Shown here: in pieces, positions 28,510 through 50,238 of the stretch | How positions within the stretch are numbered: the first letter of the stretch is position 1 | Layout: each line of letters starts with the position of its first letter | Source: a virus | Direction: 5' to 3' (one strand) | DNA length: 64,000 nucleotides | Virus record (IMG/VR): IMGVR_UViG_3300042882_001046 | Location: 32,001 to 96,000 of that record | The notes under the pieces: generated by a model | What the model saw: only the letters and a program-made list of their open reading frames with translations | What the model was told of the DNA's origin: nothing | Database searches by the model: none | Made by a program: the position numbers and the translations under genes

Positions 28510-28932
28510 GGGGATGAAATGGTATCGATTGGCATTGTTGGGGATAAGTGGCACGTAGTCAGAATTCATCTATGACTTTAATCTATGGTGAAGACAATTA
28601 GCTGGCAATACTTTTGCTAAGATGGCGACTTTAGGTTTAACTAGAGAAGCTTCTGTTGTAGCTGCCTAAGAGGTAGTCACAACCGTTACTCCAACCAAGT
28701 TGGTGTAACCTCGGGTCGATTAGGACGTTAACCTAGGAACAGAAGTCCAATATACGGGTCACAGGTCAGAGCTCGTTTAAAATAATTCTGAGACCAGGTT
28801 GTTTGTAAGTTTGGTTCCCACATACATCAAACTTAATATTTCGGAACGTTGAGAAACAACGTTGTACTAAACGTGTAGTCATTTATTGTCAAAGTGAGCA
28901 AGACGCGGGTTCGACTCCCGCCATCTCCACCA
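28510..28932 (+). ncRNA. ssrA: tmRNA
   Basis: Acceptor GGGGATG/CATCTCC-A-CCA with G3.U70, T-arm GCGGGTTCGACTCCCGC, tag ORF ending ...VAA-TAA (28604-28669), TACCTTTG promoter element at 28483. Confidence 0.92.
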
Positions 28933-38064: not shown

Positions 38065-39942
38065 ATGAGCATAGATAAAAAAATCTTAGAAATCTACAAT
38101 CAGATTACCGAATCACAAAAGTCAATTATAAAAACGATTGGTTTAAATGAAGCCGCTTTGGAAGCTCCATTAGATACTGTAAGAGTAAATTCTGGTTTTG
38201 GACCAAGATGGGGTAGATTACATAATGGTGTTGATTTAGCTGCGGACGCAGCAAATGTTAAATCTCCTGCGGATGGTGTTGTTGACATTGCCGCAATCAA
38301 AAATGATGATTGTGGAGGTACTATCATGATTAATCATGCTGACGGTTATAAATCAGGGTATTGCCACATGCAAAAAATTAATGTAAGAGCAGGTCAAAAA
38401 GTTCAAAAAGGTGAAGTAATCGGAATTAGTGGTGGTGGTCCTAATGACCCTGGTAAAGGTAGAAGTGATGGTAGACATTTACATTTTACTTTAAGAAAAG
38501 ATGGTCAAGTTGTTGACCCTATGAATTTTATTGGCAAAGAAGGTATTGTCATGACAGGAAGTACCCCTGAATCCTCGTCTAAAGCATCAGAAGATGCGTA
38601 TGATTATGCAACGTCTAAAAATAAATCCACAACAAGTTCATCACCAAAATATGCTGAGGTTGTTGGTACAGTAACAAGTGCAGAAGGAATGAACGAAGAA
38701 ATACAAGAAATTTTAAAACTTTACGATATAATTCTTAAAGAAGCCTCTTCCGCAAGTAGTGAATTATTTGGTGGTAATAACGTAAAAATACCTGTAGACG
38801 GGGCTCACGCAGGTCAATCAGGATGGCAAAGTAATAATGCTTGGGATATTGCGGCACCCGTAGGTACACCTGTTTATGCATTAGCCGATGGAGTTGCCCA
38901 AACATTTTCAGACTATGGAAGAGAGGTTAGAGCAACCCAAGGAAAAAAACTTTACGGTCAAAGTTTTACAGTGAAAAGTGACGGAGGTCTTCCAAGTATT
39001 TATTACACACATTTGGAAGGCTCACCTGTAACAAAAGGAGCAACAATCAAGTGCGGTCAATTTTTAGGTTATATTATGGATTTTCCTAATAGTAGTTACG
39101 ACCACGTTCACATTGGAGTTGAGACTGGAAACATACGACAGTTTTTGAATGATGATGGTACAATGAAATGTGCAAAAGGTCAACAAATTACTGGAGGAGA
39201 AATTAGTAATTCTCCTTCTACTGATGACGCATCATCAAAAGCGTATGATTATGCCGTTAGTAAACAATCTTCACAAACATCATCAAGTATTCCAAAATAT
39301 GCAGAAGTTGTTGGGACTGTGACAAGTGCCGAAGGGTTGAATGAGCAGAGAAATTTTGGTAAAAATATATCAAACAGATATGGTAGGGTTATAATTCCAA
39401 AAGATGATAATCCAAAAATTAAATCTCCAATATCTGGTGTTATTAACAATAAAAAGTATTTTTCGGGTTGCGCAAATCAATTAACTATTGAAAATAATGA
39501 CAACGGAACTGTTTATTTACAATATTGTGGTATATCAAATGTAAAAGTTAGTAATGGTAGGAGAGTAAATGTTGGTGATGTATTAGGTACTACTGATTCG
39601 GATGTAGAAGCTATTATGTATGATAGTAGGTGGAATAGAATTAATATTCCTTCTAAGGATTTAAAAATAGATAAAAAAGAAAAGGATAAAGAAGAAGAGG
39701 TAGATAAAACAAGAAAAAGTTCTGACCCTGAGTATTTTGACCCTCTTATGGCATCTATTATGGGTATTCCAGGTAAATTGTTTCAAGATAAATATGATAA
39801 GTCAGGTAACAGAACAGAAAAAAGATATGGTGGTGTTGCCGACAAACAACAAGTAGACCCATGGGTTTTAAATTTCTTAAAAGACCCATTCAATAGAAAA
39901 AAGGTTAATGAAAATATAGAAAAAATTAAAAAGATGTTATAA
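38065..39942 (+). CDS. Multi-domain M23 peptidase (two intact domains plus one degenerate)
   Basis: HNGVD/Y.H/HLHF, then H..NAWDI/YYTHL/HVHIG, then a third domain without the Zn ligands; start moved to 38065. Confidence 0.85.
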   Translation: MSIDKKILEIYNQITESQKSIIKTIGLNEAALEAPLDTVRVNSGFGPRWGRLHNGVDLAADAANVKSPADGVVDIAAIKNDDCGGTIMINHADGYKSGYCHMQKINVRAGQKVQKGEVIGISGGGPNDPGKGRSDGRHLHFTLRKDGQVVDPMNFIGKEGIVMTGSTPESSSKASEDAYDYATSKNKSTTSSSPKYAEVVGTVTSAEGMNEEIQEILKLYDIILKEASSASSELFGGNNVKIPVDGAHAGQSGWQSNNAWDIAAPVGTPVYALADGVAQTFSDYGREVRATQGKKLYGQSFTVKSDGGLPSIYYTHLEGSPVTKGATIKCGQFLGYIMDFPNSSYDHVHIGVETGNIRQFLNDDGTMKCAKGQQITGGEISNSPSTDDASSKAYDYAVSKQSSQTSSSIPKYAEVVGTVTSAEGLNEQRNFGKNISNRYGRVIIPKDDNPKIKSPISGVINNKKYFSGCANQLTIENNDNGTVYLQYCGISNVKVSNGRRVNVGDVLGTTDSDVEAIMYDSRWNRINIPSKDLKIDKKEKDKEEEVDKTRKSSDPEYFDPLMASIMGIPGKLFQDKYDKSGNRTEKRYGGVADKQQVDPWVLNFLKDPFNRKKVNENIEKIKKML

Positions 39943-39943
39943 T

Positions 39944-39969
39944 AAAAAACCCACCATTAGGTGGGTTTT
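39944..39969. terminator. Bidirectional intrinsic terminator
   Basis: AAAACCCACC-atta-GGTGGGTTTT. Confidence 0.8.
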
Positions 39970-39991
39970 GTTTTTAAGGGAAAGTTATAAA

Positions 39992-40183
39992 TTATTTTAC
40001 TTCTTCTACTTTCTCAACATCAGCTTTAACTGAATCAACTGCCACTGCAGATGAATCAACTTTAACTGAATCAACAGCTACTGCAGTTGAATCAACCGCT
40101 TCTGTAGATTTACCAGTCCCGTTTCCGCAAGATGCTAACATTGTTGTTGCTGCAATTGCAAATAGTGCTACGATTTTTTTCAT
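39992..40183 (-). CDS. Small lipoprotein with AVAVDS repeats
   Basis: Lipobox LASC; start moved to 40183 (MKKIVAL). Confidence 0.75.
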   Translation of the reverse strand: MKKIVALFAIAATTMLASCGNGTGKSTEAVDSTAVAVDSVKVDSSAVAVDSVKADVEKVEEVK

Positions 40184-40299
40184 GTTTTTTTGTTTTTTGT
40201 TTGTTATGTATTTTATTAACTTATGAACCATAAATATATGAAGAATTATCTTATGTGTCAATTATTTTAAAAGTTTTTTTTTGTTAAAATTTTGTTATG

Positions 40300-40385
40300 C
40301 GGAGAGTGTTGGGCTCGAACCAACGCGGCTGTTACACCCTACCTGTTTAGCAAACAGGCCCCTTCACCAACTTGGGTAACCCTCC
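40300..40385 (-). tRNA. tRNA-Ser(GCT)
   Basis: Cloverleaf with long variable arm; anticodon arm CCTGT-TTGCTAA-ACAGG. Confidence 0.93.
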
Positions 40386-40724
40386 TTATTGTAATAATTG
40401 TATTAAATAATAAGATAATTTATATCCTGTAAACGCACCAAGAGCTGATGGTAATGGGAAAACAATCATTTTACCTAAATCTGTAACGTATTTTGGTCTG
40501 TTAACAATCTTACCCATATAAAAGTAATATGTTAAGTACCCTAATAACACCGCTAAATCCGTTCTTGTTGCAATGAATACAACAATAGTCGCACCAATAA
40601 AACCAAAAGTAAAATTATCTCTAACTCCTTCCCAAATTTCAAATGTGGTAGCCTCTTTGTACTCTTTAACAATTTTTTTAAACTTTGTTCTGTTTGTCTG
40701 TTTTTTTTTAATTTGTGATTCCAT
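40386..40724 (-). CDS. Small membrane protein inside the tRNA array
   Basis: 112 aa, 3 hydrophobic segments. Confidence 0.6.
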   Translation of the reverse strand: MESQIKKKQTNRTKFKKIVKEYKEATTFEIWEGVRDNFTFGFIGATIVVFIATRTDLAVLLGYLTYYFYMGKIVNRPKYVTDLGKMIVFPLPSALGAFTGYKLSYYLIQLLQ

Positions 40725-40725
40725 G

Positions 40726-40799
40726 TTGGAATAGATGGATTCGAACCATCGACATCTACCGTATCAGGATAGCGCTCTAACCAACTGAGCTATATTCCA
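40726..40799 (-). tRNA. tRNA-Ile(GAT)
   Basis: Canonical cloverleaf; loop CTGATAC. Confidence 0.93.
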
Positions 40800-40804
40800 A
40801 TGTG

Positions 40805-40974
40805 CTGTAAGGGAAGGAGTCGAACCTTCAAGAGGAGATTCAATTGATAACACAACGCTTGCAAGCTGGTGGTCTACCCCATATTATCAATCTATTTCTT
40901 TGTCCCCGCCCCCGAGACAGGAGGGTGCGTATGCCAAGGTCATAACTGAGACAACCTAATTTCGCCACCTTACA
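40805..40974 (-). ncRNA. Giant (170 nt) tRNA-like RNA with GTC (Asp) anticodon-like loop
   Basis: Acceptor TGTAAGG/CCTTACA-G, T arm GAAGG-TTCGACT-CCTTC, stem CCCTC-CTGTCTC-GGGGG, plus structured inserts in the D-loop and variable region. Confidence 0.75.
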
Positions 40975-40979
40975 ATTTG

Positions 40980-41066
40980 CGGAGGAACAGGGATTCGAAC
41001 CCCAGATACCCTTTCGAGTATGCCAGTTTTCAAGACTGGTGCAATCAACCGCTCTGCCATTCCTCC
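40980..41066 (-). tRNA. tRNA-Ser(TGA)
   Basis: Cloverleaf with long variable arm; loop CTTGAAA. Confidence 0.93.
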
Positions 41067-41070
41067 AAAT

Positions 41071-41170
41071 AAAAGTGTTTTGGTCAACCACTCGCTACCC
41101 ACCGCAGTATGACGATTCCCCCTGTGGTCATCGTACTTACGCCTAAGCCTTGTCCGTTGTAAACACTTTT
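41071..41170 (-). ncRNA. Candidate 100-nt structured RNA between tRNA-His and tRNA-Ser
   Basis: Perfect 10-bp closing stem AAAAGTGTTT/AAACACTTTT with a GC-richer folded interior. Confidence 0.5.
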
Positions 41171-41171
41171 G

Positions 41172-41245
41172 GGTGACTAACGGGAATCGAACCCGTGACA
41201 ACTTGAACCACAATCAAGCGCTCTACCTACTGAGCTATAGACACC
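41172..41245 (-). tRNA. tRNA-His(GTG)
   Basis: G-1:C73 extended acceptor; loop TTGTGGT. Confidence 0.9.
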
Positions 41246-41250
41246 ATATG

Positions 41251-41320
41251 TTGCGTGTATGAGGTTCGAACTCACTTGACCTTCCTTATGAGAGAAAGTT
41301 CTTTCCCACTAAGCCACGCA
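41251..41320 (-). pseudogene. Degenerate tRNA with CAT anticodon
   Basis: Intact T arm and CTCATAA loop, but ~3 nt are missing at positions 7-9 and the D arm is short. Confidence 0.6.
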
Positions 41321-41326
41321 GTTTAG

Positions 41327-41398
41327 TGGTTTTATTAGGACTCGAACCCAAACTCCGAAATCCGTAGTTTCGTGTGCTATCCATTACACCATAAAACC
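41327..41398 (-). tRNA. tRNA-Arg(ACG)
   Basis: Cloverleaf; loop CTACGGA. Confidence 0.92.
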
Positions 41399-41402
41399 GT
41401 TG

Positions 41403-41473
41403 TTGTCCCTCAGGGATTCGAACCCCAACTGGATGGACCAAAACCACCTGTACTACCGTTATACTAAAGGACA
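41403..41473 (-). tRNA. tRNA-Gln(TTG)
   Basis: Cloverleaf; loop TTTTGGT. Confidence 0.92.
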
Positions 41474-41481
41474 CTTTAGTG

Positions 41482-41561
41482 TGGGAGTGGAGGGATTCGA
41501 ACCCCCAATGTCGACGACCACAGATTTACAGTCTGCTAAGCAACCGTTGCTCAACACTCCC
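41482..41561 (-). tRNA. tRNA-Tyr(GTA)
   Basis: Long variable arm; loop CTGTAAA. Confidence 0.92.
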
Positions 41562-41562
41562 A

Positions 41563-41792
41563 AGTTAGGAAAGGAGAAGATGGTCGAGTGGACATCTCCT
41601 TTTACGATTGGCATTACTCAGGTGTATTTCTCCCAACTCCGATGATACCGACCAAAATACACTCTCATGTCATAGGTACCACCATTCCCCAATCAACCTA
41701 TAAAACGATAATAGAATGTCCCAGCCGTCTCCTTCTCTTATCTAACATACACTAACAGCTAAATACGGCTTGACTGATTATACTGTATGTTT
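41563..41792 (-). ncRNA. Candidate ~230-nt rod-like structured RNA between tRNA-Trp and tRNA-Tyr
   Basis: Nested stems GGACAT/ATGTCC, TTTTAT/GTAAAA, GATTGG/CCAATC and GTGTATTT/AAATACAC, plus a 5' hairpin AACATACA/TGTATGTT. Confidence 0.55.
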
Positions 41793-41794
41793 TG

Positions 41795-41868
41795 CACGGG
41801 TGGAGAGGTTCGAACTCCCGACAACTGGTTTTGGAGACCAGTACTCTACCAAACTGAGCTACACCCGC
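41795..41868 (-). tRNA. tRNA-Trp(CCA)
   Basis: Cloverleaf; loop CTCCAAA. Confidence 0.93.
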
Positions 41869-41873
41869 TTATA

Positions 41874-42116
41874 TTACCTATACTTCCTGATAATCTTCAT
41901 TATCTCTCCGATATCTGTAAGTTCCATCTTTTGTCCGACACGGATTGGATAGAATGCCACGGTAAATCCGTGGTTTCCACAAAAACGTTCGGTTACTCTT
42001 TTTCCATTAACTTTTTCAAGATAAATCCATGGAATGTTACCTGCGAATTCACATTTGATTCCCAGTTTGTCCATTCTTCTTCTGAAATCGTTTAATACTC
42101 TTGTGTCTGTTTCCAT
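41874..42116 (-). CDS. Hypothetical protein inside the tRNA array
   Basis: 80-aa ORF filling the gap between tRNA-Cys and tRNA-Trp. Confidence 0.65.
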   Translation of the reverse strand: METDTRVLNDFRRRMDKLGIKCEFAGNIPWIYLEKVNGKRVTERFCGNHGFTVAFYPIRVGQKMELTDIGEIMKIIRKYR

Positions 42117-42130
42117 AAGTTTATTTTTTG

Positions 42131-42202
42131 AGGTCGAACCCAGAATCGAACTGGGGTAATTAGTTTTGCAGACTAACGCCTAAGCCGCTCGGCCACCCGA
42201 CC
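42131..42202 (-). tRNA. tRNA-Cys(GCA)
   Basis: Cloverleaf, U73; loop CTGCAAA. Confidence 0.93.
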
Positions 42203-42208
42203 ATTGTT

Positions 42209-42442
42209 TTATTTAACCATATCAAAGTTAATCATATTCTCTGACATTAATTCACGAAGTTCATTTCTTATTTCCTGATATGCGTCATACTTGTCCTGTG
42301 GTAAATCATCGGAAGCATATTTAGTTTTCGCTCTCAATGATTGGTCCAAATCCCAAAGTATTGACCACATCTTCATTCCTTTAGTTGCCAAGTCGAAATC
42401 TTGTTGGTCCTCAGGTAAATTAAATTCTAAAACAGCTTTCAT
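42209..42442 (-). CDS. Hypothetical protein (MKAVLEFNLPED...)
   Basis: Start moved to 42442; small-protein type common in phages. Confidence 0.65.
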   Translation of the reverse strand: MKAVLEFNLPEDQQDFDLATKGMKMWSILWDLDQSLRAKTKYASDDLPQDKYDAYQEIRNELRELMSENMINFDMVK

Positions 42443-42620
42443 TTTTTTTCTCTTTATATTTTTTACATCTCTTTTTTGGTACTTCAACGTAATATGAACC
42501 CATAAACGATGAGAATACACCAACGTAGTTGGACCCAACCTCTTTTACATCATGGAGCACTGAACCCTCAAAAAGGTTGAAGAAGATGTCAGTACAGTCT
42601 TTTTTTGTTACAACTTTCAT
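42420..42620 (-). CDS. Hypothetical protein
   Basis: Start moved to 42620; TATATTTG element just upstream. Confidence 0.5.
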   Translation of the reverse strand: MKVVTKKDCTDIFFNLFEGSVLHDVKEVGSNYVGVFSSFMGSYYVEVPKKRCKKYKEKKNESCFRI

Positions 42621-42658
42621 ATTACAAATATACACAATTTTATTTAATTTTTCTAATG

Positions 42659-42732
42659 TGACCCCGCCGAGATTCGAACTCGGGACTCCTTCATTAAAAG
42701 TGAAGTGCTCTAGCCAACTGAGCTACGAAGTC
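42659..42732 (-). tRNA. tRNA-Lys(TTT)
   Basis: Cloverleaf; loop CTTTTAA. Confidence 0.93.
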
Positions 42733-42738
42733 TTATTG

Positions 42739-42811
42739 TGGTAACGGTCAGAATCGAACTGACGACACCTTGGTCTTCAGCCAAGTGCTCTACCAACTGA
42801 GCTACATCACC
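42739..42811 (-). tRNA. tRNA-Phe(GAA)
   Basis: Cloverleaf; loop CTGAAGA. Confidence 0.93.
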
Positions 42812-42816
42812 ATTTG

Positions 42817-42889
42817 TAGTCCCTGTAGGAATCGAACCTACGACATCTTGCATGTAAAACAAGCGCTCTCCCAACTGAGCTAAAGGACT
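42817..42889 (-). tRNA. tRNA-Val(TAC)
   Basis: Cloverleaf; loop TTTACAT. Confidence 0.93.
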
Positions 42890-42894
42890 GTTTG

Positions 42895-42968
42895 TACTCC
42901 GTACGGGGCTCGAACCCGTAATCTTCACCGTGAAAGGGTGACGACTTAACCAATTTGTCCAACGGAGC
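42895..42968 (-). tRNA. tRNA-Glu(TTC)
   Basis: Cloverleaf; loop CTTTCAC. Confidence 0.93.
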
Positions 42969-43022
42969 AATTATTCAACAAAAATACGACCAATAAATCA
43001 AAGAACCAAAAAACATCAAAAT

Positions 43023-43055
43023 AAAAAACCCCGAACCTTTTTACGAGTTCGGGGT
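43023..43055 (-). terminator. Intrinsic terminator (putative attenuator) upstream of tRNA array 1
   Basis: Minus strand ACCCCGAAC-tcgtaaaaag-GTTCGGGGT-TTTTT. Confidence 0.85.
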
Positions 43056-43088
43056 ATATAAAAAATTTAGTTTATTAATCTAAAAAAA

Positions 43089-43187
43089 TTATCCTATTTT
43101 GACATCCGAACTACATAATAGCATACGCTCATACCAACAAATCGATTGTTGTGTACTAAAGACCATATGTTTAAATGTAGTTTTCAT
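43089..43187 (-). CDS. Putative leader peptide 1, 32 aa: MKTTFKHMVFSTQQSICWYERMLLCSSDVKIG
   Basis: ATG-to-TAA ORF between a consensus promoter and a terminator; its composition mirrors the downstream tRNAs. Confidence 0.75.
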   Translation of the reverse strand: MKTTFKHMVFSTQQSICWYERMLLCSSDVKIG

Positions 43188-43205
43188 TGTTTCTTATATA
43201 TAGTA

Positions 43206-43236
43206 CAAAGATACAAAAAAATCTTTGGGTGTCAAA
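43206..43236 (-). promoter_or_regulatory. Bacteroidota sigma70-type promoter for leader 1 / tRNA array 1
   Basis: Minus strand TTTG-N19-TATCTTTG. Confidence 0.8.
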
Positions 43237-43261
43237 TATTTTTTTTAACTATTTATAAAAG

Positions 43262-43681
43262 ATGAAAACATTGAGACAAATCATTAAGGAAGAATTATTA
43301 CTTGAAAAAAGAATCACTCAAGTTAATTCGTCTTTAGAAGTAGTATTCCTATTTGACGTAAACAGGACCACTCACGCCTTTGATAGAGACACAAGAGATG
43401 ATATTGAAGGGTATAATGTAAGACCGATTGTTAACGCTGAAATTAGAGAGATTATCAGTACAGTAAAAAAAGATATTGCCGAAAAAATAGTTTCAAGGGA
43501 AATTAACCCTGAAGTAGATTTTGTTGTAAAGTCCTTAAAATGGGAATTAGCCATGGCAATAACTCCTGTTCATATTGGAGGAACTTATTGGCAATTAATT
43601 ATCAAAACAGTATTCAGAGAATCCAAATACAACCCTTTTAGAGTGGGTGAAAACCAATTGGTGATTTACTCAGACATTTAA
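43262..43681 (+). CDS. Hypothetical protein (MKTLRQIIKEELLLE N-terminus)
   Basis: 139 aa; TATTTAT upstream. Confidence 0.65.
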   Translation: MKTLRQIIKEELLLEKRITQVNSSLEVVFLFDVNRTTHAFDRDTRDDIEGYNVRPIVNAEIREIISTVKKDIAEKIVSREINPEVDFVVKSLKWELAMAITPVHIGGTYWQLIIKTVFRESKYNPFRVGENQLVIYSDI

Positions 43682-43772
43682 AAAAAAAAAGGGTAACACT
43701 AGTATCTGAATCGTTCCCGTGTTACCCAGTTTGTAATTGAGCTTGTGTATCTAAATCGTGCTCCTCAATCAC
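43681..43772 (-). ncRNA. Candidate small RNA with two loop copies of ACGAUUYAGAUAC
   Basis: TATCTTTG promoter element (43777-43784), two hairpins and a poly-U end. Confidence 0.55.
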
Positions 43773-43811
43773 AATACAAAGATACAAAAATATTTCGTAC
43801 CACAAAAAATA

Positions 43812-44522
43812 TTATCCCTGAATATTAAAATTAATCACACATCTGTGAGTTTTTCCGTAAAAAGGTTTAACCGAATGAACAATATCGTAAGGCCAAATTA
43901 TTAACATCCCTTTCTTTGGTCTAATAAAGTAAGACATTCCCCTAACGTGAAATGTAAATACCCCACTATATGGATGGTCATCAACTGGGTCTCCGTCAGA
44001 TAGATAATAACCACCAGAAAAGTTTAAAGTTGTTTCTTCATTTGGTTGCCATCTACAATGATTATGAGCGTTATGTCCACGACCTTCAGTTGGATTATAA
44101 TATTGCATCCAACTCTCAGTAATCATTGGTTTTCTGTTGTGTTCAAATCCAAGTTTGTCCAGCATCTCCATATAACCCAATTCTACCCTTTTTTTAATTT
44201 TCTTAACACATTCCTCATCTATATTAAGAAAATCGTTTGGCGGGGTCCAAAATCGACTACCAATGGGGTTATGTTCCGTTGGTTCCACCCACATGTCTTG
44301 CCTATTGTAGTTTACTTGATATGTAGATTGTCTTTGTTCGTCGTATTGTTCTGGTAACTCTTGACCCATCAATTTTTGTTGGTCGGTTAGAGCATTAAAA
44401 CCAAAATTATAAACTTCGTCTTGAAGTTCGTCATCTGTGAATACTTTCATAAACACAGGAATAGGTGCAAGATGAAAAAGATTCTCCTGACTTGTTTTAA
44501 CTAATGGATTTTTTACGTACAT
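43812..44522 (-). CDS. 2OG-Fe(II) oxygenase-like protein (TIGR02466-type)
   Basis: ESWMQYY, HNAHNH, SGGYYL and PKKG.L..WP...HSV motifs. Confidence 0.75.
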   Translation of the reverse strand: MYVKNPLVKTSQENLFHLAPIPVFMKVFTDDELQDEVYNFGFNALTDQQKLMGQELPEQYDEQRQSTYQVNYNRQDMWVEPTEHNPIGSRFWTPPNDFLNIDEECVKKIKKRVELGYMEMLDKLGFEHNRKPMITESWMQYYNPTEGRGHNAHNHCRWQPNEETTLNFSGGYYLSDGDPVDDHPYSGVFTFHVRGMSYFIRPKKGMLIIWPYDIVHSVKPFYGKTHRCVINFNIQG

Positions 44523-44535
44523 AATTTAAATCTTG

Positions 44536-44616
44536 TACCCCAAGAGAGACTCGAACTCTCACGACCGAAGTCATTGGTTCCTAAGACCAACGCGGCTACC
44601 GTTACGCCATCGGGGT
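44536..44616 (-). tRNA. tRNA-Leu(TAG)
   Basis: Long variable arm; loop CTTAGGA. Confidence 0.92.
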
Positions 44617-44619
44617 GTG

Positions 44620-44711
44620 TCATTATCGCTTCAGCCACATCGGGAAAGGCGCCTCTCCCGCGTTGTTTAAGTGTGTAACTTGCGCCGTATCTCACTGAGG
44701 TACGATAATGA
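44620..44711 (-). ncRNA. Candidate 92-nt structured RNA between tRNA-Arg and tRNA-Leu
   Basis: 9-bp closing stem TCATTATCG/CGATAATGA; internal hairpin CGGGAGAG-GCGC-CTTTCCCG. Confidence 0.5.
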
Positions 44712-44714
44712 TTG

Positions 44715-44788
<74 letters not shown>

Positions 44789-44792
44789 ATTG

Positions 44793-44878
44793 TACCGAGG
44801 GAGGGACTCGAACCCTCACGGCCGTTTACTGACCAAGGGATTTTAAGTCCCTCGTGGCTACCATTACACCACCTCGGC
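44793..44878 (-). tRNA. tRNA-Leu(TAA)
   Basis: Long variable arm; loop CTTAAAA. Confidence 0.93.
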
Positions 44879-44886
44879 ATTGTCTT

Positions 44887-44894
44887 ACAAATAT
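44887..44894 (-). promoter_or_regulatory. -7 promoter element for the Leu/Arg/Leu tRNA trio
   Basis: Minus strand TATATTTG 8 nt upstream of tRNA-Leu(TAA), downstream of a terminator. Confidence 0.65.
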
Positions 44895-44916
44895 AACCTT
44901 TATGGAATCATAAATC

Positions 44917-44951
44917 AAAAAAAACCCCAAACTTTTTTTTTAGTTTGGGGT
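44917..44951 (-). terminator. Intrinsic terminator ending the leader-2 operon
   Basis: Minus strand ACCCCAAAC-loop-GTTTGGGGT-TTTTTTT. Confidence 0.8.
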
Positions 44952-44977
44952 CCTATTATATAAAGTTATTACCTTTT

Positions 44978-45709
44978 TTATTGAGCATCAAACTCTTCTT
45001 CCCATAACGTATCAGAAGAATTTTCTTCTGTATTATAAGTGTGATTTAATTCAATTGTCATGTCATTGAAATTAAATACGAACTCTCCGTCTGACCCTTC
45101 ATTAATTTCCCAACCACCATAATGACTTTCAAGTTGATTATAACACCAATCTTCAATTGTTGACGGAACTGAATCACCATTTTCTTCAAATGAACTTTCA
45201 ATATAACCAGAATCCCCCGAACCATTATATCTTAGAGTTAATATTCCATCTTGTGGAATTTCTAAATCAGATAGAACCCCATCTTTTTCCCATTCTTCAA
45301 AAATTTCTTGACCTTCTTCTTCTGACCATTCAGTCCCACTAGCGTCTCCTCTATCATACCAAGACCAATAATGGTTAAATGAAATGTCTTTGTTTGCAGA
45401 ATTAATACTAATCTCAAACTTTTGCCATGACATCGCATCAATATCTGGTGTCTCACTACTATATAATTCTTGGTCAGACGCATACTTCGTAATTTTTTGA
45501 AGTATCGGTATCAACCCTGACGGAACGTCCGCTCTCCAGTTATTGGAGAAATGTGTCATTTGATTCCAATCTATATTATTATAGTTAAGTGTATCACCAT
45601 AATCATCCATCTCGAATTCAAACTCACCGACTTCCATTCCGAGAGAGCTCAAATAATTACAAACTCTTCTCAGGTATTGTTTTTCTTCTGTTGTTAAAAG
45701 TTTTTCCAT
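44978..45709 (-). CDS. Acidic protein with C-terminal DUF6878-like domain
   Basis: Y.GSGDSG.IE and YGGWEINEG..G.F.F motifs. Confidence 0.6.
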   Translation of the reverse strand: MEKLLTTEEKQYLRRVCNYLSSLGMEVGEFEFEMDDYGDTLNYNNIDWNQMTHFSNNWRADVPSGLIPILQKITKYASDQELYSSETPDIDAMSWQKFEISINSANKDISFNHYWSWYDRGDASGTEWSEEEGQEIFEEWEKDGVLSDLEIPQDGILTLRYNGSGDSGYIESSFEENGDSVPSTIEDWCYNQLESHYGGWEINEGSDGEFVFNFNDMTIELNHTYNTEENSSDTLWEEEFDAQ

Positions 45710-45720
45710 ATAAATAAATA

Positions 45721-46074
45721 TCAGTCTTCAAACTCTAATTTCATTGTTTTTAACATCCATTGGGGTCTTTGATTTGACGAGATGTTACTAATCCACTCTT
45801 TGGCTGAAGGTATGTAATTATTACAATCTTCTTTTACGTGTTGTTCTCCAACATATCGGGTATAAACTGTTTTTCCGTCTGAGTTTAAGAACTCAGTTCC
45901 AAATCTTTTTTCCATTTCAAAAATTCCTTCACTATGATGTCTAAACATTCTATGAAGAGAATCTCCAAACCAAGATTTGGTTTCATCTAACCATTCATGT
46001 AAATGAATGTAATCCTCAGGTTTTCCTCCAAACTTTTTGGCGGATGATTTTGCATGTAAATTTGGATGTGCCAT
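45721..46074 (-). CDS. DUF6915-like His-rich protein
   Basis: HP..HA.SSA.KFGG..EDY...H.W.D, HR..RHH.EG and EQHV.ED motifs. Confidence 0.7.
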   Translation of the reverse strand: MAHPNLHAKSSAKKFGGKPEDYIHLHEWLDETKSWFGDSLHRMFRHHSEGIFEMEKRFGTEFLNSDGKTVYTRYVGEQHVKEDCNNYIPSAKEWISNISSNQRPQWMLKTMKLEFED

Positions 46075-46076
46075 GA

Positions 46077-46310
46077 TTATTTAATTTGTGAGTTGTTTCT
46101 TCTTGCTTCCTCAGCTTCTTTGTAAACCCTAACCCATGTTAAAAATACATCAATAGGTGCTAAAATCCAACACATAATAATTAACGCCATACTCTCAAGA
46201 CCTGGAGATATTCCAAGACCACCTGACATAACATCTCTGTTCCATTTTCTAATTGACATGATTACGCAGTAAATGAAACAAACAACGTAATACGACCAAA
46301 ATAATTGCAT
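46077..46310 (-). CDS. Small membrane protein
   Basis: Start moved to 46310 (MQLFWSY); two TM helices. Confidence 0.6.
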   Translation of the reverse strand: MQLFWSYYVVCFIYCVIMSIRKWNRDVMSGGLGISPGLESMALIIMCWILAPIDVFLTWVRVYKEAEEARRNNSQIK

Positions 46311-46325
46311 AAATAAAAGTTTTAG

Positions 46326-46398
46326 TGGAGAATGAGGGAATCGAACCCACGACAACTTGAATGCAAATCAAGCGCTCTACCAACTGAGCTAATTCCCC
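46326..46398 (-). tRNA. tRNA-Ala(TGC)
   Basis: G3.U70; loop TTTGCAT. Confidence 0.93.
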
Positions 46399-46404
46399 TG
46401 TTTG

Positions 46405-46477
46405 AGCCTCCTGTCGGAATCGAACCAACGACCTACTGATTACAAATCAGTTGCTCTACCTGCTGAGCTAAGGAGGC
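46405..46477 (-). tRNA. tRNA-Thr(TGT)
   Basis: Cloverleaf; loop TTTGTAA. Confidence 0.93.
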
Positions 46478-46527
46478 ATTTGTGGGTGTATGCTCATCAC
46501 ATACTCATGGGTTCCCACAACCCGTTG

Positions 46528-46600
46528 AGCGGAAGACCAGGCTCGAACTGGCCACCCCCGACTTGGAAGGACGGTGCTCTACCAAATGAGCTACTTCCGC
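46528..46600 (-). tRNA. tRNA-Gly(TCC)
   Basis: Cloverleaf; loop CTTCCAA. Confidence 0.93.
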
Positions 46601-46605
46601 AATTT

Positions 46606-46681
46606 TGGCGGTCCCGACGGGATTCGAACCCGTATCTCGCACCGTGACAGGGTGGAATTGTAACCATTCAACCACGGGACC
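46606..46681 (-). tRNA. tRNA-Asp(GTC), CCA encoded
   Basis: Cloverleaf; loop CTGTCAC; ends in GCCA. Confidence 0.92.
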
Positions 46682-46709
46682 GTGTGTGGGGAGTTTCACC
46701 CCAAACTTT

Positions 46710-47201
46710 TTAATTTGTTAAGATGTGTTGATGTTCTCCGATTACTCGTTTTAAACTACTAACATATCTCTTATCAGACGCATATACCCTTCCGAGTAGT
46801 GCAAGATACTGATTTTTTGTCAAATCGTCTTTACCTTTTAACATATAATCTTGCCATAAAAAGTAATCATATACGCTAAGGTTCCAATCTGTATATTTTG
46901 AGTATCCGCTCTGAGTTTTACCAACTGAAGACGTTTCTCTTTTTGTTGGAACTCTCATTCCAAACAGATTGTTTGCCGTTTTGAACAATTTTGATGTAAA
47001 TGCTCCTGACTCTAACACAGCTTGTGCAAACACAATATCAGGAAATTTTATACCAAACTTAATTATCTGCTCGTACAATTCTTCTTTTGTCAACCTATCA
47101 TCTTGTGTCTGATAAGTTGTTTGTACTTGCTTCTCTTGTGCTTTTGTTGTCATTGTTCCTAACAATAACAACACAGTCAATAAGAATGTTTTTAACTTCA
47201 T
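46710..47201 (-). CDS. Secreted glucosaminidase-domain peptidoglycan hydrolase
   Basis: Signal peptide; AQAVLESG..S.L....NNLFGM and Y..D..Y motifs. Confidence 0.8.
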   Translation of the reverse strand: MKLKTFLLTVLLLLGTMTTKAQEKQVQTTYQTQDDRLTKEELYEQIIKFGIKFPDIVFAQAVLESGAFTSKLFKTANNLFGMRVPTKRETSSVGKTQSGYSKYTDWNLSVYDYFLWQDYMLKGKDDLTKNQYLALLGRVYASDKRYVSSLKRVIGEHQHILTN

Positions 47202-47281
47202 TTCTTTCTTTTTGTCTGTTTATGCTTCAGGATTACTCCATCCACGATACCACAACATTGGAAATTTTCCACCCACCTCAG

Positions 47282-47353
47282 CTGCTCCACCTGGGCTCGA
47301 ACCAGGATAAAAGGATTAACAGTCCTCCGTAATAACCATTATACGATAGAGCA
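47282..47353 (-). tRNA. tRNA-Asn(GTT)
   Basis: Cloverleaf; loop CTGTTAA. Confidence 0.9.
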
Positions 47354-47390
47354 AAATTATAATCAAATTTTCCAACAAAGGAAACTTTTG

Positions 47391-47464
47391 TCGGGATGGC
47401 TGGATTCGAACCAACGGCCTCCACGTCCCAAACGTGGCGCGATACCTGACTACGCTACATCCCG
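47391..47464 (-). tRNA. tRNA-Pro(TGG)
   Basis: C1-G72; loop TTTGGGA. Confidence 0.93.
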
Positions 47465-47469
47465 TACAT

Positions 47470-47500
47470 AAAAAAACCCTGAAGTATTAGTTCAGGGTTT
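47470..47500 (-). terminator. Intrinsic terminator (putative attenuator) upstream of tRNA array 2
   Basis: Minus strand AAACCCTGAA-ctaatac-TTCAGGGTTT-TTTT, 5 nt before tRNA-Pro. Confidence 0.85.
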
Positions 47501-47522
47501 AGATAATTGGCTATAATATTGT

Positions 47523-47621
47523 TTACCAACCACTCGCTTCTGAACTTACGCAAATAGTGCCCGCATCCCCATTAGGAGTTGTCGGTGTGTCTAAATTCGT
47601 ATTTGTGTTCATAGTTTTCAT
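47523..47621 (-). CDS. Putative leader peptide 2, 32 aa: MKTMNTNTNLDTPTTPNGDAGTICVSSEASGW
   Basis: ATG-to-TAA ORF upstream of the terminator; its composition mirrors the downstream tRNAs. Confidence 0.75.
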   Translation of the reverse strand: MKTMNTNTNLDTPTTPNGDAGTICVSSEASGW

Positions 47622-47625
47622 AGTG

Positions 47626-47657
47626 CAATATTACAATAAATATATTTAAAAACCAAA
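47626..47657 (-). promoter_or_regulatory. Putative promoter for leader 2
   Basis: Minus strand TTTG-N20-TAATATTG (one mismatch to TAnnTTTG); a TATTTAT motif overlaps the spacer. Confidence 0.5.
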
Positions 47658-47666
47658 AAATAAATA

Positions 47667-48449
47667 TTAGTTACTAAAACCTCTCAAATAAACATCATTT
47701 GTCATATTGAAATTAATCCTCATTGATGAGTTTGGATAAGTACTATAAACTCTATATTGACCCTGTGGAATTACATTCCCTGTATAATTAATCAAGTATG
47801 ATGACAACTGAGTATTTGTGTTCAACACTGTTTGACTATTGTTAGCACTTGACACTATTCTTGTACCGTTTTTCGCATAATAACCAATTCTAGTTTGTCT
47901 TTTTGTATCATTATTCATTGCCGAGACAGGAATCAAAACTAAAACCCAAGCGTTATCATTAACAGTATTTTTAGATATTTTTACTGTTGTAAAATTATAT
48001 GCCATTTTAGGGTTACCGTGTTCATCAACTCCACCACTTACTTGTGGTATGTCAGCCTGAATAACTTGTGGTAACACACCATTAGTCCAAAATGGCATGT
48101 TTAAATAATTGTTTAAATCTCGGTAATTGGTATTTTGAATACTCACCATTGTCCAACAAGAGTAAAATGGAACGCTTGTAGATTGTGGGTTTCTTGGAAC
48201 TGAGTTTTTAAGGTAATTAACAATTAATGTTGTTTTAGCTTGCTTTTCAATAAAAACATACGCCTTCAAATTAGGTGTTGAACTTGTCGTAACCCTTAAA
48301 TTAGGGTTCGTACTTGAAGTTGAGTTAAGTTCTTGGGATTGCTCAATTTTAGTTTTTTCGAAGTCTACTCCAGTGATGTCTTCTTTAGAACAAGACACAA
48401 CAAATACCGATAAGGTAAGGAATGATAATAATAATTGTTTGATTTTCAT
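47667..48449 (-). CDS. Lipoprotein, hypothetical
   Basis: Lipobox VVSC followed by SKED (Bacteroidota-style). Confidence 0.7.
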   Translation of the reverse strand: MKIKQLLLSFLTLSVFVVSCSKEDITGVDFEKTKIEQSQELNSTSSTNPNLRVTTSSTPNLKAYVFIEKQAKTTLIVNYLKNSVPRNPQSTSVPFYSCWTMVSIQNTNYRDLNNYLNMPFWTNGVLPQVIQADIPQVSGGVDEHGNPKMAYNFTTVKISKNTVNDNAWVLVLIPVSAMNNDTKRQTRIGYYAKNGTRIVSSANNSQTVLNTNTQLSSYLINYTGNVIPQGQYRVYSTYPNSSMRINFNMTNDVYLRGFSN

Positions 48450-48459
48450 GATTGTTTGT

Positions 48460-48741
48460 TTAAATGTATTTTTTAAAAATTGTTTCTAAGGTGTCTTCAT
48501 CTTCCCTACTTATAACATGAAATTTTTGAGATAACTTATCCATTTTCTCTAAAAATTCATCTTCTAAAATAGATGTTTTTGGTTTACCATTTTTATCAGT
48601 TTGTATTTGAGACAACACTGATTTAGGTAAATGGTTTTCTTCAACTAACCCTTCAATTAATTCTTTAATTTCTCTTGGGTCACAGGCCGTAACAAATTCA
48701 TACGGGTCAATGTCGATTTCTTCTACACAAAATTCAGGCAT
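48460..48741 (-). CDS. Hypothetical acidic protein
   Basis: 93-aa ORF. Confidence 0.6.
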   Translation of the reverse strand: MPEFCVEEIDIDPYEFVTACDPREIKELIEGLVEENHLPKSVLSQIQTDKNGKPKTSILEDEFLEKMDKLSQKFHVISREDEDTLETIFKKYI

Positions 48742-48766
48742 AATTATTTTTTTTTTAATAGTTTAG

Positions 48767-48840
48767 TGGACCAGCCTGGGCTCGAACCAGGGACCTTCAC
48801 ATTATGAGTGTGTTGCTCTAACCAACTGAGCTACAAGTCC
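48767..48840 (-). tRNA. tRNA with CAT anticodon (Ile2 or elongator Met)
   Basis: Cloverleaf, loop CTCATAA, paired G1-C72 (not initiator); its own TATCTTTG element lies just upstream. Confidence 0.88.
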
Positions 48841-48905
48841 AATTTGATACAAAGATAAACAATAAATTTGATTTTGGAAATTTTTTTGTGATATTTATAG
48901 ATATT

Positions 48906-49007
48906 ATGACAGACAAAAATATAACGTGTCTTTTGGGAACTAACCAAAAATATGAGAACTCGGGCGATTTGAGACGTGGAAAACCTCGAACCATAAACTA
49001 TTGCTAA
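48906..49007 (+). CDS. Small 33-aa ORF followed by a terminator
   Basis: MTDKNITCLLGTNQKYENSGDLRRGKPRTINYC; TATTTAT upstream. Confidence 0.4.
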   Translation: MTDKNITCLLGTNQKYENSGDLRRGKPRTINYC

Positions 49008-49023
49008 ATCTGTAGTATAATAT

Positions 49024-49057
49024 AAAGGGGTCGACTAAATTGACCCCTTTTGTTTTT
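49024..49057 (+). terminator. Intrinsic terminator
   Basis: AAAGGGGTC-gactaaatt-GACCCCTTT-TGTTTTT. Confidence 0.75.
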
Positions 49058-49090
49058 AATAAAAATAATATATCTTTGTAAAAAATTTTA

Positions 49091-49582
49091 GTGATGAGCA
49101 CTGTATTGGTATTAAATTTTGACTACACTCCGTTAAACACAACTAGTGTTTGGAGGGGGTTTGTGTTAGTTGATAAAGGAAAGGCAGAAATTGTAAAATC
49201 AGACGAAAATCCGATTGTTGCAGGATATAATACTTATGTACGTCCACTTATTATTAGATTACTGAAATATATCAAACATCGTTCAAGGACATTAAGGGCA
49301 AACAGAAGTCGAATATATAAAAGAGACGGATATGAGTGTGTTTATTGTGGGTCAAAAAAAGAGTTGACCTTAGACCACGTATTACCCAAATCAAGAGGTG
49401 GGACAAATGAATGGACTAACCTTGTTACGTCTTGTATGAAATGTAATCGTAAAAAAGCAGATAGAACACCAGATGAGGCCAAAATGAACATGAAATCTAA
49501 ACCATACATTCCACAAATTATGTACGAAGACAAAACTTTATTGAATGTTTGGAATGCGTATCAAGAATCATTCATTTCTTAA
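49091..49582 (+). CDS. HNH endonuclease
   Basis: VLVLN.DY.PL N-terminus, RD...C.YCG, T.DHV.P.S.GG...W.NLV.SC..CN..K. Confidence 0.9.
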   Translation: MMSTVLVLNFDYTPLNTTSVWRGFVLVDKGKAEIVKSDENPIVAGYNTYVRPLIIRLLKYIKHRSRTLRANRSRIYKRDGYECVYCGSKKELTLDHVLPKSRGGTNEWTNLVTSCMKCNRKKADRTPDEAKMNMKSKPYIPQIMYEDKTLLNVWNAYQESFIS

Positions 49583-49599
49583 AAATAAAACCTATAATT

Positions 49600-49920
49600 A
49601 TGAGTAATATGTCAGACAAATCATTGAGAATTACAATTGTTATCCTTGGATTAATTCTTTGCTGGGGAACTGTTATGTACAGTAAACAAGAACAAAAATT
49701 AAAAGAAAAAGAATTAAAAATTGAGGTGTTTAGTGGCGGAGATATTTCTAAAGTTCAAACTATGGATTCATTACAAAATGTAATTGATTCTTTAGAGGTT
49801 GAAATTTTCCCATGTCAAGTTGAGCTTGGAAGATATCAAATCGCATATGAAATTTTTAAGGAGAGAAATCCAAAAGCCGCGTCACAATACGGTGACATAA
49901 TATCACAAGAAACAGAATAA
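49600..49920 (+). CDS. Membrane-anchored hypothetical protein
   Basis: N-terminal TM helix; start moved to 49600. Confidence 0.55.
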   Translation: MSNMSDKSLRITIVILGLILCWGTVMYSKQEQKLKEKELKIEVFSGGDISKVQTMDSLQNVIDSLEVEIFPCQVELGRYQIAYEIFKERNPKAASQYGDIISQETE

Positions 49921-49932
49921 AAATAAAATAAA

Positions 49933-50238
49933 ATGCAAGATTCAAATTACACAAACCCAGAACAATCAGGTCAGGGACAAAACCCTCAAGACCTTATTAA
50001 CGCATCATTAATTTTTGCCAGAGCTTTAGGTTTAATTCTTAAAGAAGGTGAAGGTATTGTTGTCGACATCAAAGGAGACATTAATTTAGGAGAAGACGTA
50101 AAAAAAGTTATCGTTTTTGAATATCAAAACCAAGTTCACATATATAAGTGTGAAGAAGACCTTGAAGAAGGGACCGCGGTAAATATGGACCAAAAAAATG
50201 AGGGTCCTGAAGTTGTGGAACCAACCGAAGAGGTATAA
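49933..50238 (+). CDS. Hypothetical protein
   Basis: 101-aa ORF. Confidence 0.6.
   Translation: MQDSNYTNPEQSGQGQNPQDLINASLIFARALGLILKEGEGIVVDIKGDINLGEDVKKVIVFEYQNQVHIYKCEEDLEEGTAVNMDQKNEGPEVVEPTEEV

Follow-up and report, generated by a model that had tools for sequence, protein, structure and literature searches.

Can a phage use the translation of a short peptide to decide whether its transfer RNA (tRNA) genes are transcribed? The question is raised by a locus in IMG/VR virus record IMGVR_UViG_3300042882_001046, where a promoter, a 32-codon open reading frame (ORF, hereafter leader 1) and an intrinsic terminator precede thirteen tRNA genes (array 1). We analysed a stretch of 64,000 nucleotides (nt) of this record (positions 32,001 to 96,000, hereafter the window, whose coordinates are used throughout), in which a first-pass annotation had read leader 1 as an attenuator with codons mirroring the tRNAs behind it. 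From comparison with related sequences, ribosome-mediated (leader-peptide) attenuation of phage tRNA transcription is likely to be the function of this unit, and this large phage of Bacteroidota type probably raises its tRNA output when the matching codons are decoded slowly. The putative attenuator is one of two in the window and a member of a phage-specific family. Its anatomy and conservation, the co-variation of its codons with tRNA genes, the covariation of its alternative pairing and the position of the matched codons are all observed here.

Two leader reading frames and the tRNA genes behind them

The promoter, the 32-codon ORF, the terminator and the 13 tRNA genes all lie on the minus strand and in the order given by the first-pass annotation, with a further promoter between terminator and tRNAs:

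43206-43236, minus strand: promoter P1 of leader 1, of the Bacteroidota type (TTTG, N19 spacer, TATCTTTG)
43089-43187, minus strand: leader ORF 1, 32 codons plus stop; codons 2-21 are the sensor
43175-43182, minus strand: segment 1 (AACUACAU, codons 2-5), which pairs with segment 2, closing a long hairpin over the sensor codons
43106-43116, minus strand: segment 2 (codons 24-28); its 5' part pairs with segment 1 and its 3' part, AGUUCGG, is the antiterminator strand
43018-43055, minus strand: intrinsic terminator 1 (5' arm 43055-43046, loop 43045-43038, 3' arm 43037-43028, then U tract)
42979-43010, minus strand: promoter P2 (TTTG, 20-nt spacer, TATTTTTG), between terminator 1 and tRNA-Glu, ending 10 nt before tRNA-Glu
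40299-42968, minus strand: tRNA array 1, with Glu, Val, Phe, Lys, Cys, Trp, Tyr, Gln, Arg(ACG), His, Ser(UGA), Ile and Ser(GCU)

The ATG of leader 1 lies 18 nt 3' of promoter P1, which is kept among the relatives of the window phage. The motif class to which such promoters belong, TTTG-N17-21-TAnnTTTG, is informative, because 18 copies are found in the window against 2.9 in shuffled sequences (about 6-fold). An A/U-rich spacer separates the ORF from terminator 1, the stem of which (43055-43028) has 10 base pairs (bp), 6 of them G-C. Inside its 5' arm lies segment 3, CCGAACU (43052-43046), and AGUUCGG in codons 26-28 (43112-43106) is the exact complement of these 7 nt, so that the perfect complementarity reported earlier is real. 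The tRNAs of array 1 were called with ARAGORN and Rfam. The array also includes three ORFs of about 80-112 codons, scattered between the tRNAs, and after the array the next terminator on the same strand is found at 39969-39946.

The composition of leader 1 is as first described. Every one of the 12 amino acids of array 1 is encoded within codons 2-21, as are Thr and Met, and Asn, Pro and Ala occur nowhere in the peptide. The chance of finding all 12 amino acids in 20 residues of phage composition is 5.6e-5, and only 3 of 30,380 real 20-residue windows of phage proteins contain them; for the whole 31-residue peptide, the chance is 3.2e-3. The match extends to isoacceptors, as had been claimed. 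According to codon usage in 122 long ORFs of the 118-kb virus record containing the window, AGA makes up 73% of the Arg codons of this genome and CGT 10%, and leader 1 nevertheless uses CGT, in keeping with tRNA-Arg(ACG). For the two Ser tRNAs, leader 1 holds both AGT and TCG, the latter accounting for 6% of the Ser codons of the genome.

A second unit is present in the same window:

47626-47657, minus strand: promoter-like site of leader 2, near-consensus (TTTG, 20-nt spacer, TAATATTG) and kept in relatives
47523-47621, minus strand: leader ORF 2, 32 codons
47467-47500, minus strand: terminator of leader 2 (stem 47500-47474, then U tract), with CUGAACU in the 5' arm and loop
46325-47464, minus strand: tRNA block behind leader 2, with Pro, Asn, a glucosaminidase-like ORF, Asp, Gly, Thr and Ala

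Leaders 1 and 2 have equal lengths, identical first three codons and segment 2 at the same position, and unit 2, which follows the same fold plan, is likewise conserved in relatives. At codons 3-22 of leader 2, 18 of the 20 residues are Thr, Asn, Pro, Asp, Gly or Ala (binomial p=1.9e-7), which are exactly the six amino acids of the tRNAs behind it, and no real 20-residue window of the proteome combines a similar enrichment with the presence of all six. When residues at codons 2-21 of leaders 1 and 2 were scored against arrays 1 and 2, the counts were 16 and 3 in one row and 1 and 17 in the other (Fisher p=1.3e-6; p=1.8e-4 for whole peptides). None of the 20 amino acids is missing from the two sensors combined (p ~0.004).

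The pairing elements of the two units also correspond. Codons 26-28 of leader 2 read AGUUCAG and are complementary to CUGAACU in its own terminator, which, compared with AGUUCGG and CCGAACU in unit 1, amounts to a compensatory change between the two paralogues. Terminator 2 ends 8-10 nt before tRNA-Pro. This leaves no space for a promoter, and the tRNAs behind leader 2 are therefore reachable by read-through only. Because the promoter box ends just 4 nt before the ATG, the mRNA of leader 2 may be nearly leaderless.

Co-variation and alternative pairing in relatives

Ten related IMG/VR loci were found via the divergent neighbouring gene (43262-43681), and DNA patterns then gave 30 loci with about 13 distinct DNA variants of leader 1. 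In all 30 of these close loci the order is tRNA-Leu(UAG), P1, ORF, terminator, P2-like box and Glu/Val array. The leader 1 ORF is kept in the 13 variants, and the insertions and deletions (indels) in its body are all multiples of three; the sole out-of-frame indel is a 1-nt deletion near the 3' end of the ORF, which gives one lineage a new tail.

A wider search pattern, made of the segment 2 motif, a spacer and the terminator family, detected 100 units in IMG/VR, distributed over 90 loci and encoding 46 distinct peptides. Behind every one of the 100 units there is a tRNA gene on the same strand, within 170 nt for 96 of them and within 1.1 kb for the other 4. All 46 distinct variants have an ORF with ATG and stop, of 27-36 codons. 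When the same pattern was run on 596 Gb of bacterial and archaeal genomes, it returned 9 matches, mostly ordinary gene ends, none of them beside a tRNA. A search pattern without the antiterminator motif yielded no leader variants beyond those already known.

The leaders fall into a leader 1-like class, a leader 2-like class and a third, Leu/Arg-rich leader found in L175. On the minus strand of L175 (7541-7614 and 11574-11650), a class-2 leader precedes Pro-Asn-Gly-Gly-Thr-Ala on the same contig as the third-class leader; the latter, of a class absent from the window, has six Leu and three AGA codons in its sensor and stands before Arg(UCU)-Leu-Leu.

Similarity searches placed neither leader in a known family. 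Rfam cmscan of 39000-50000 with E up to 1 gave nothing at 43015-43240 or 47466-47660, and the Rfam His, Trp, Thr, Leu and Phe leader and T-box families had no match at either leader locus. Leader peptides 1 and 2 matched no family of Pfam-A or PHROGs with E up to 1. Among 50,697 phage records, blastn of the region found no cultured relative with the leader, its matches being confined to tRNAs and to a short stretch of an oxygenase-like gene in Flavobacterium phage immuto; tblastn of the leader peptide gave one match only, at chance level.

We then asked how closely leader codons follow the tRNA genes, counting all tRNAs before the next terminator as one array and the stretch from codon 2 to five codons before segment 2 as the sensor. 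In 32 non-redundant units, 95.5% of the array amino-acid types were present in the sensor, compared with 58% when arrays were permuted among all units and 86% (sd 1.5) when they were permuted within classes; none of 20,000 permutations reached the observed value. For 18 representatives with less than 70% sensor identity, the observed fraction was 0.94, against 0.63 and 0.84 for all-unit and within-class permutations, and again 0 of 20,000 permutations reached it (p at most 5e-5), although these p-values are optimistic and overstate independence, since the units are of common descent. In every unit, the sensor includes the amino acids of the first five tRNAs. The dependence of leader composition on tRNA content that the first-pass annotation expected is thus seen for the set as a whole; the individual departures from it are given below.

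Single lineages illustrate this match. The leader of L165 and L194 is without Glu, Phe, Ser and Thr and has Pro, Ala and Leu, and the same holds for its array (Pro, Pro, Lys, Cys, Trp, Leu, Val, Tyr, Ala, Gln, Met, His, Arg, Ile). In L179, the array is devoid of tRNA-Trp, tRNA-Phe and tRNA-Lys, and the leader is devoid of those residues, with Cys replacing the Trp of the others. L177 and L193 have tRNA-Asn in their arrays and Asn codons in their leaders. In the L026 lineage, where no terminator stands before the Leu-Arg-Leu tRNA block, leader 2 has five Leu codons and one AGA. Class 2 leaders more generally have Arg codons when tRNA-Arg(UCU) belongs to the terminator-delimited array (9 leaders) and none when the array is without it (4 leaders), with one exception overall. 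At the level of codon families, 68 Arg, Leu and Ser codons match the anticodon family downstream, 5 belong to another family and 9 have no tRNA.

The mechanism that we propose would run as follows. The unit would be transcribed from P1 and its 32-codon ORF translated. If all sensor codons (about 2-21) were decoded fast, the ribosome would reach segment 2 or the stop codon, segment 2 would be masked or re-paired with segment 1, the terminator would form, and transcription would stop before tRNA-Glu. If a charged tRNA were scarce, the ribosome would stall at any one of the sensor codons and hold segment 1; segment 2 would be free to pair with the 5' arm of the terminator (AGUUCGG:CCGAACU), and RNA polymerase would read into the 13 tRNA genes. 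Because the sensor codons are those read by the controlled tRNAs, the circuit would be a negative-feedback, any-of-many sensor of the tRNA pool, which in the case of array 1 would act on top of the separate promoter P2. In this scheme we infer the translation of the ORF, the stalling, the kinetic competition of the structures and the regulated read-through, as well as the biological trigger, which could be host tRNA cleavage or depletion.

For the family, we lean towards a more general reading, in which large phages of Bacteroidota-type hosts would carry modular roster sensors, with every block of tRNA genes placed behind a leader peptide whose codons are those that its tRNAs decode. A shortage of any one of up to about 14 tRNAs, for instance when a host anticodon nuclease has cleaved it, would make the ribosome stall and would induce exactly the matching tRNA genes, and whenever a tRNA gene was gained, lost or moved between operons, the leader would be rewritten accordingly.

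The three helices of such a scheme have the following predicted energies in the two leaders:

Helix 1:2: -8.0 kcal/mol in leader 1, -5.6 kcal/mol in leader 2
Helix 2:3: -13.7 kcal/mol in leader 1, -9.7 kcal/mol in leader 2
Terminator helix: -16.3 kcal/mol in leader 1, -11.8 kcal/mol in leader 2

We folded both window leaders under a 30-nt ribosome mask, using transcripts that end before the 3' arm of the terminator. With the A site at codons 2-21, the pairing probability of segments 2 and 3 was mostly 0.97-1.0, falling to 0.60-0.71 at codons 14-16 of leader 1; with the A site at codons 22-32, it was 0. The switch between codons 21 and 22 means that the boundary in amino-acid composition is also the place where a stalled ribosome begins to cover the antiterminator strand. 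This boundary is visible across the family. Among 38 units, a fraction of 0.7-0.97 of the residues at 21 to 4 codons before segment 2 belonged to the array set; over the first three codons, and again from 3 codons ahead of segment 2 on, this fraction equalled the background of 0.42.

The alternative pairing itself covaries. At the free purine:pyrimidine (R:Y) position between segment 2 and the 5' arm of the terminator, which together with the extension of the helix is all that the wide search pattern leaves free in a core it otherwise fixes, we counted A:U 28 times, G:C 12 times, G:U once and A:C once, the single A:C being a mis-placed match. In 17 units, the 3' arm of the terminator has a G opposite the U of the 5' arm, but segment 2 has an A, from which it follows that segment 2 changes in step with the 5' arm and does not simply duplicate the 3' arm. 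Outside the fixed core, pairing averaged 1.29 bp, against 0.64 bp with shuffled partners (p=2e-4), and in the L001/L031 and L026 lineages the extended 2:3 pairing goes into the terminator loops. Among close relatives, pairing of the proposed antiterminator helix holds in 91 of 91 cells, where changes are only one-sided, to G-U. The pairing persists in all variants, and the covariation of segments 2 and 3 called for by the earlier reading holds across the family.

The hairpin over the sensor is also well supported. Of 45 leaders, 41 have a minimum-energy fold in which segment 2 is paired with codons 1-7 (mean z -2.5), and the single-sequence fold of the leader 1 transcript has z=-5.6. RNAalifold, applied to the alignment of relatives, returned the terminator and a long hairpin over codons 2-27, closed by AACUACA:UGUAGUU, with 4 compensatory pairs, one of them in the terminator stem.

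Promoter P2 and the rival explanations

Several observations weigh against attenuation as just described, in addition to the limits stated with the permutation and pairing figures. The most direct concerns promoter P2. Dependence on read-through, with no downstream promoter, is a usual, not strictly defining, property of such attenuators. No promoter motif follows the terminator in 18 of 57 unit variants, leader 2 included, but leader 1 has P2, a full P2-like motif is present in 23 of the 57, and the block containing P2 is among the best-conserved parts of the alignment of relatives. Since this conserved consensus promoter lies between terminator 1 and tRNA-Glu, array 1 can be transcribed without terminator read-through, and an attenuator at this place could only modulate or add to transcription; it could not gate it. 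The first-pass proposal that leader 1 controls array 1 agrees with all the computational tests, and in view of P2 it survives in this weaker form.

Folding gives a further reservation. The complete transcript at equilibrium always folds the terminator (0.93-0.96), whatever the mask, and even without a ribosome the truncated transcript already pairs segments 2 and 3 (0.6 and 0.99). The switch expected from masked folding is thus confined to truncated transcripts, and since the terminator is favoured at equilibrium, the choice would have to be kinetic. The codons do not follow the tRNA genes everywhere either. L093 has no tRNA-Lys or tRNA-Ser(UGA), yet retains both codons, L031 retains a His codon without tRNA-His, and L066 and L098 have an Ala codon in leader 2 without tRNA-Ala, so that codons of some lost tRNAs persist. 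About one quarter of sensor residues, mostly Thr, Met and Asn, are outside the array set. There is usually one codon per amino acid in the sensor, unlike classical attenuators, which use runs of regulatory codons, and for this reason sensitivity to a mild tRNA shortage may be low. Lastly, the peptides show position-specific conservation within classes, which would also fit a functional peptide.

This last point raises the question of whether the leaders are ordinary phage microprotein genes, equipped with a promoter and a terminator of their own, that happen to lie beside tRNAs, the match in composition being due to coincidence or shared ancestry. Small ORFs are plentiful in phage genomes, each amino acid occurs only once or twice in a leader, and motifs are conserved position by position inside each class. 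We consider this explanation very improbable all the same: the chance figures for leader 1 given above, the result for the second unit, the within-class co-variation and the agreement of codon families with anticodon families all speak against it, as do the variable C-terminal tails, frameshifted in one lineage, and the failure of either peptide to match a Pfam or PHROG family. A chance microprotein was rejected on these statistics. It is equally hard to believe in a non-coding structured small RNA, of which the hairpin and terminator would be functional and the open frame incidental. The fold is indeed strong and conserved, compensatory pairs are present in the alignment fold, and another promoter-hairpin-terminator unit without obvious coding role lies 600 nt upstream. 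The frame is open from ATG to stop in all of the distinct variants, however, indels in its body are in frame, and co-variation of amino acids and codon families with tRNA genes makes sense only if the frame is read; nor does Rfam have a match at the locus. Because the co-variation is at the codon level, a pure small RNA was rejected as well.

A somewhat better, though still unlikely, explanation keeps the codon match and changes the output. P1, the ORF and the terminator would form a stand-alone, insulated unit, array 1 would be driven by P2, and instead of read-through the output would be a trans-acting terminated leader RNA or peptide (as reported for rnTrpL and peTrpL), or a transcript stabilised or cleaved in a ribosome-dependent manner. 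The conserved P2 has a suitable position for this, 10 nt before tRNA-Glu, and terminator 1 is strong (-16.3 kcal/mol and a U tract). A plain layout of terminator, then promoter, without leader ORF is also seen before the Leu-Arg-Leu tRNA block (44878-44535, minus strand), which lies behind a 243-codon DUF6878 gene; the terminator of this gene and the consensus promoter occupy 44888-44954. Trans-acting attenuator RNAs and peptides are on record (PMC6614838, PMC7298713). Insulation accounts poorly, however, for the variants without a promoter motif, in which the gap from terminator to first tRNA is just 8-45 nt, and for the covariation of segment 2 with the 5' arm of the terminator. It is also hard to explain why matched codons end where a stalled ribosome would start masking segment 2, unless the terminator decision is itself the output. 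Ribosome-mediated attenuation of the tRNA genes therefore remains the reading that we prefer.

Elsewhere in the record, a scan of all 118 kb found no third unit. Ahead of the tRNA-Met in the window, only a promoter was found, and no leader.

Known systems and neighbouring features

Multivalent leaders are known from ilvGMEDA (Ile, Val and Leu codons) and thr (Thr and Ile codons), beside trpL, hisL, leuL and pheL. Like these enterobacterial amino-acid-operon attenuators, the present units have a short 5' ORF followed by an intrinsic terminator (with translation predicted here), can form three mutually exclusive helices (1:2, 2:3 and 3:4) of comparable energies, and have regulatory codons sited so that a stalled ribosome would free the antiterminator strand. 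They differ in that phage tRNA genes, and not biosynthetic enzymes, would be regulated, and in that runs of 1-3 amino acids are replaced by a roster of up to about 14, mostly as single codons, and this roster varies with the set of genes in the operon. The units have no sequence similarity to these attenuators and no match to an Rfam leader family at the locus, and leader 1 has an extra promoter after its terminator.

The pheM leader and attenuator of E. coli pheST, which encodes phenylalanyl-tRNA synthetase, is a case of leader-peptide attenuation of a translation-apparatus gene. The proposed unit resembles it in acting on translation-apparatus genes through the supply of charged tRNA, but pheM senses one amino acid, regulates a synthetase and not tRNA genes, and is cellular, not viral. 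T-box RNAs of Gram-positive bacteria recognise uncharged tRNA by direct binding, without the help of a ribosome or an ORF. They share with the proposed unit a transcription attenuation tied to a specific tRNA state, on translation-related genes; here, by contrast, the readout would be decoding speed on an ORF, and there is no T-box match at the locus. A full-text literature search returned no description of leader-peptide control of tRNA genes.

Phage tRNAs can replace host tRNAs that are cleaved or depleted in infection, and this provides the biological context. Phage tRNA clusters are reported to counter host tRNA-targeting defences (van den Berg et al. 2023, PMC10264068), in an account that concerns the tRNAs themselves and changes in their anticodon loops. 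If our reading is true, the family would be the first case of tRNA genes under leader-peptide attenuation, and would provide the first account of a transcriptional control logic for the tRNA arrays of phages. The decades-long debate over the reasons for tRNA genes in phages, and over the use to which they are put, would become testable. A sensor of decoding speed that feeds back on tRNA transcription implies a phage tRNA supply on demand, not a constitutive one, and would point to the depletion of particular tRNAs as a stress that these phages regularly meet. Attenuation would gain a new class of targets, the RNA genes of the translation machinery, and an any-of-many roster logic in place of a run of one codon. 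For annotation, the leader sequence would predict which downstream tRNA genes form one transcription unit, and the unit would offer a small, naturally occurring component with which to monitor the availability of many tRNAs simultaneously.

Chloroflexota genomes were among the pattern matches (L215, 2579-2650; L220, 1893-1963; L221, 6768-6852). In these three, a sigma-70-like promoter precedes a short ORF with many Arg codons, behind which come a terminator and the start of a gene, and they look like ordinary Arg-type leader-peptide attenuators.

Other genes for translation are present in the window. A phage transfer-messenger RNA (tmRNA) is found at 28510-28932 on the plus strand (Rfam RF00023, 98.6 bits), with a tag of 21 residues according to ARAGORN; a tmRNA together with tRNAs for all 20 amino acids represents a heavy phage investment in translation. 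Protein genes are interleaved with the tRNA blocks on the minus strand (43812-44522, 44978-45709, 45721-46074 and 46710-47201) and would be co-transcribed with the tRNAs. Their products are a 2OG-Fe(II) oxygenase-like protein (below the Pfam cut-off), a DUF6878 protein, a DUF6915 protein and a protein with a glucosaminidase domain.

The unit mentioned above as lying 600 nt upstream of leader 1 is a candidate small RNA (43690-43806, minus strand). Its consensus promoter is followed by a stretch of about 95 nt with eleven T at the end, which folds into two hairpins, the second of them resembling a terminator; the motif CGAUUYAGAUAC is repeated in the two loops. It has no Rfam match and points toward leader 1, into the antisense of a 139-codon gene. 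In L032, L093, L026 and L017 this unit is almost invariant despite diverged flanking DNA.

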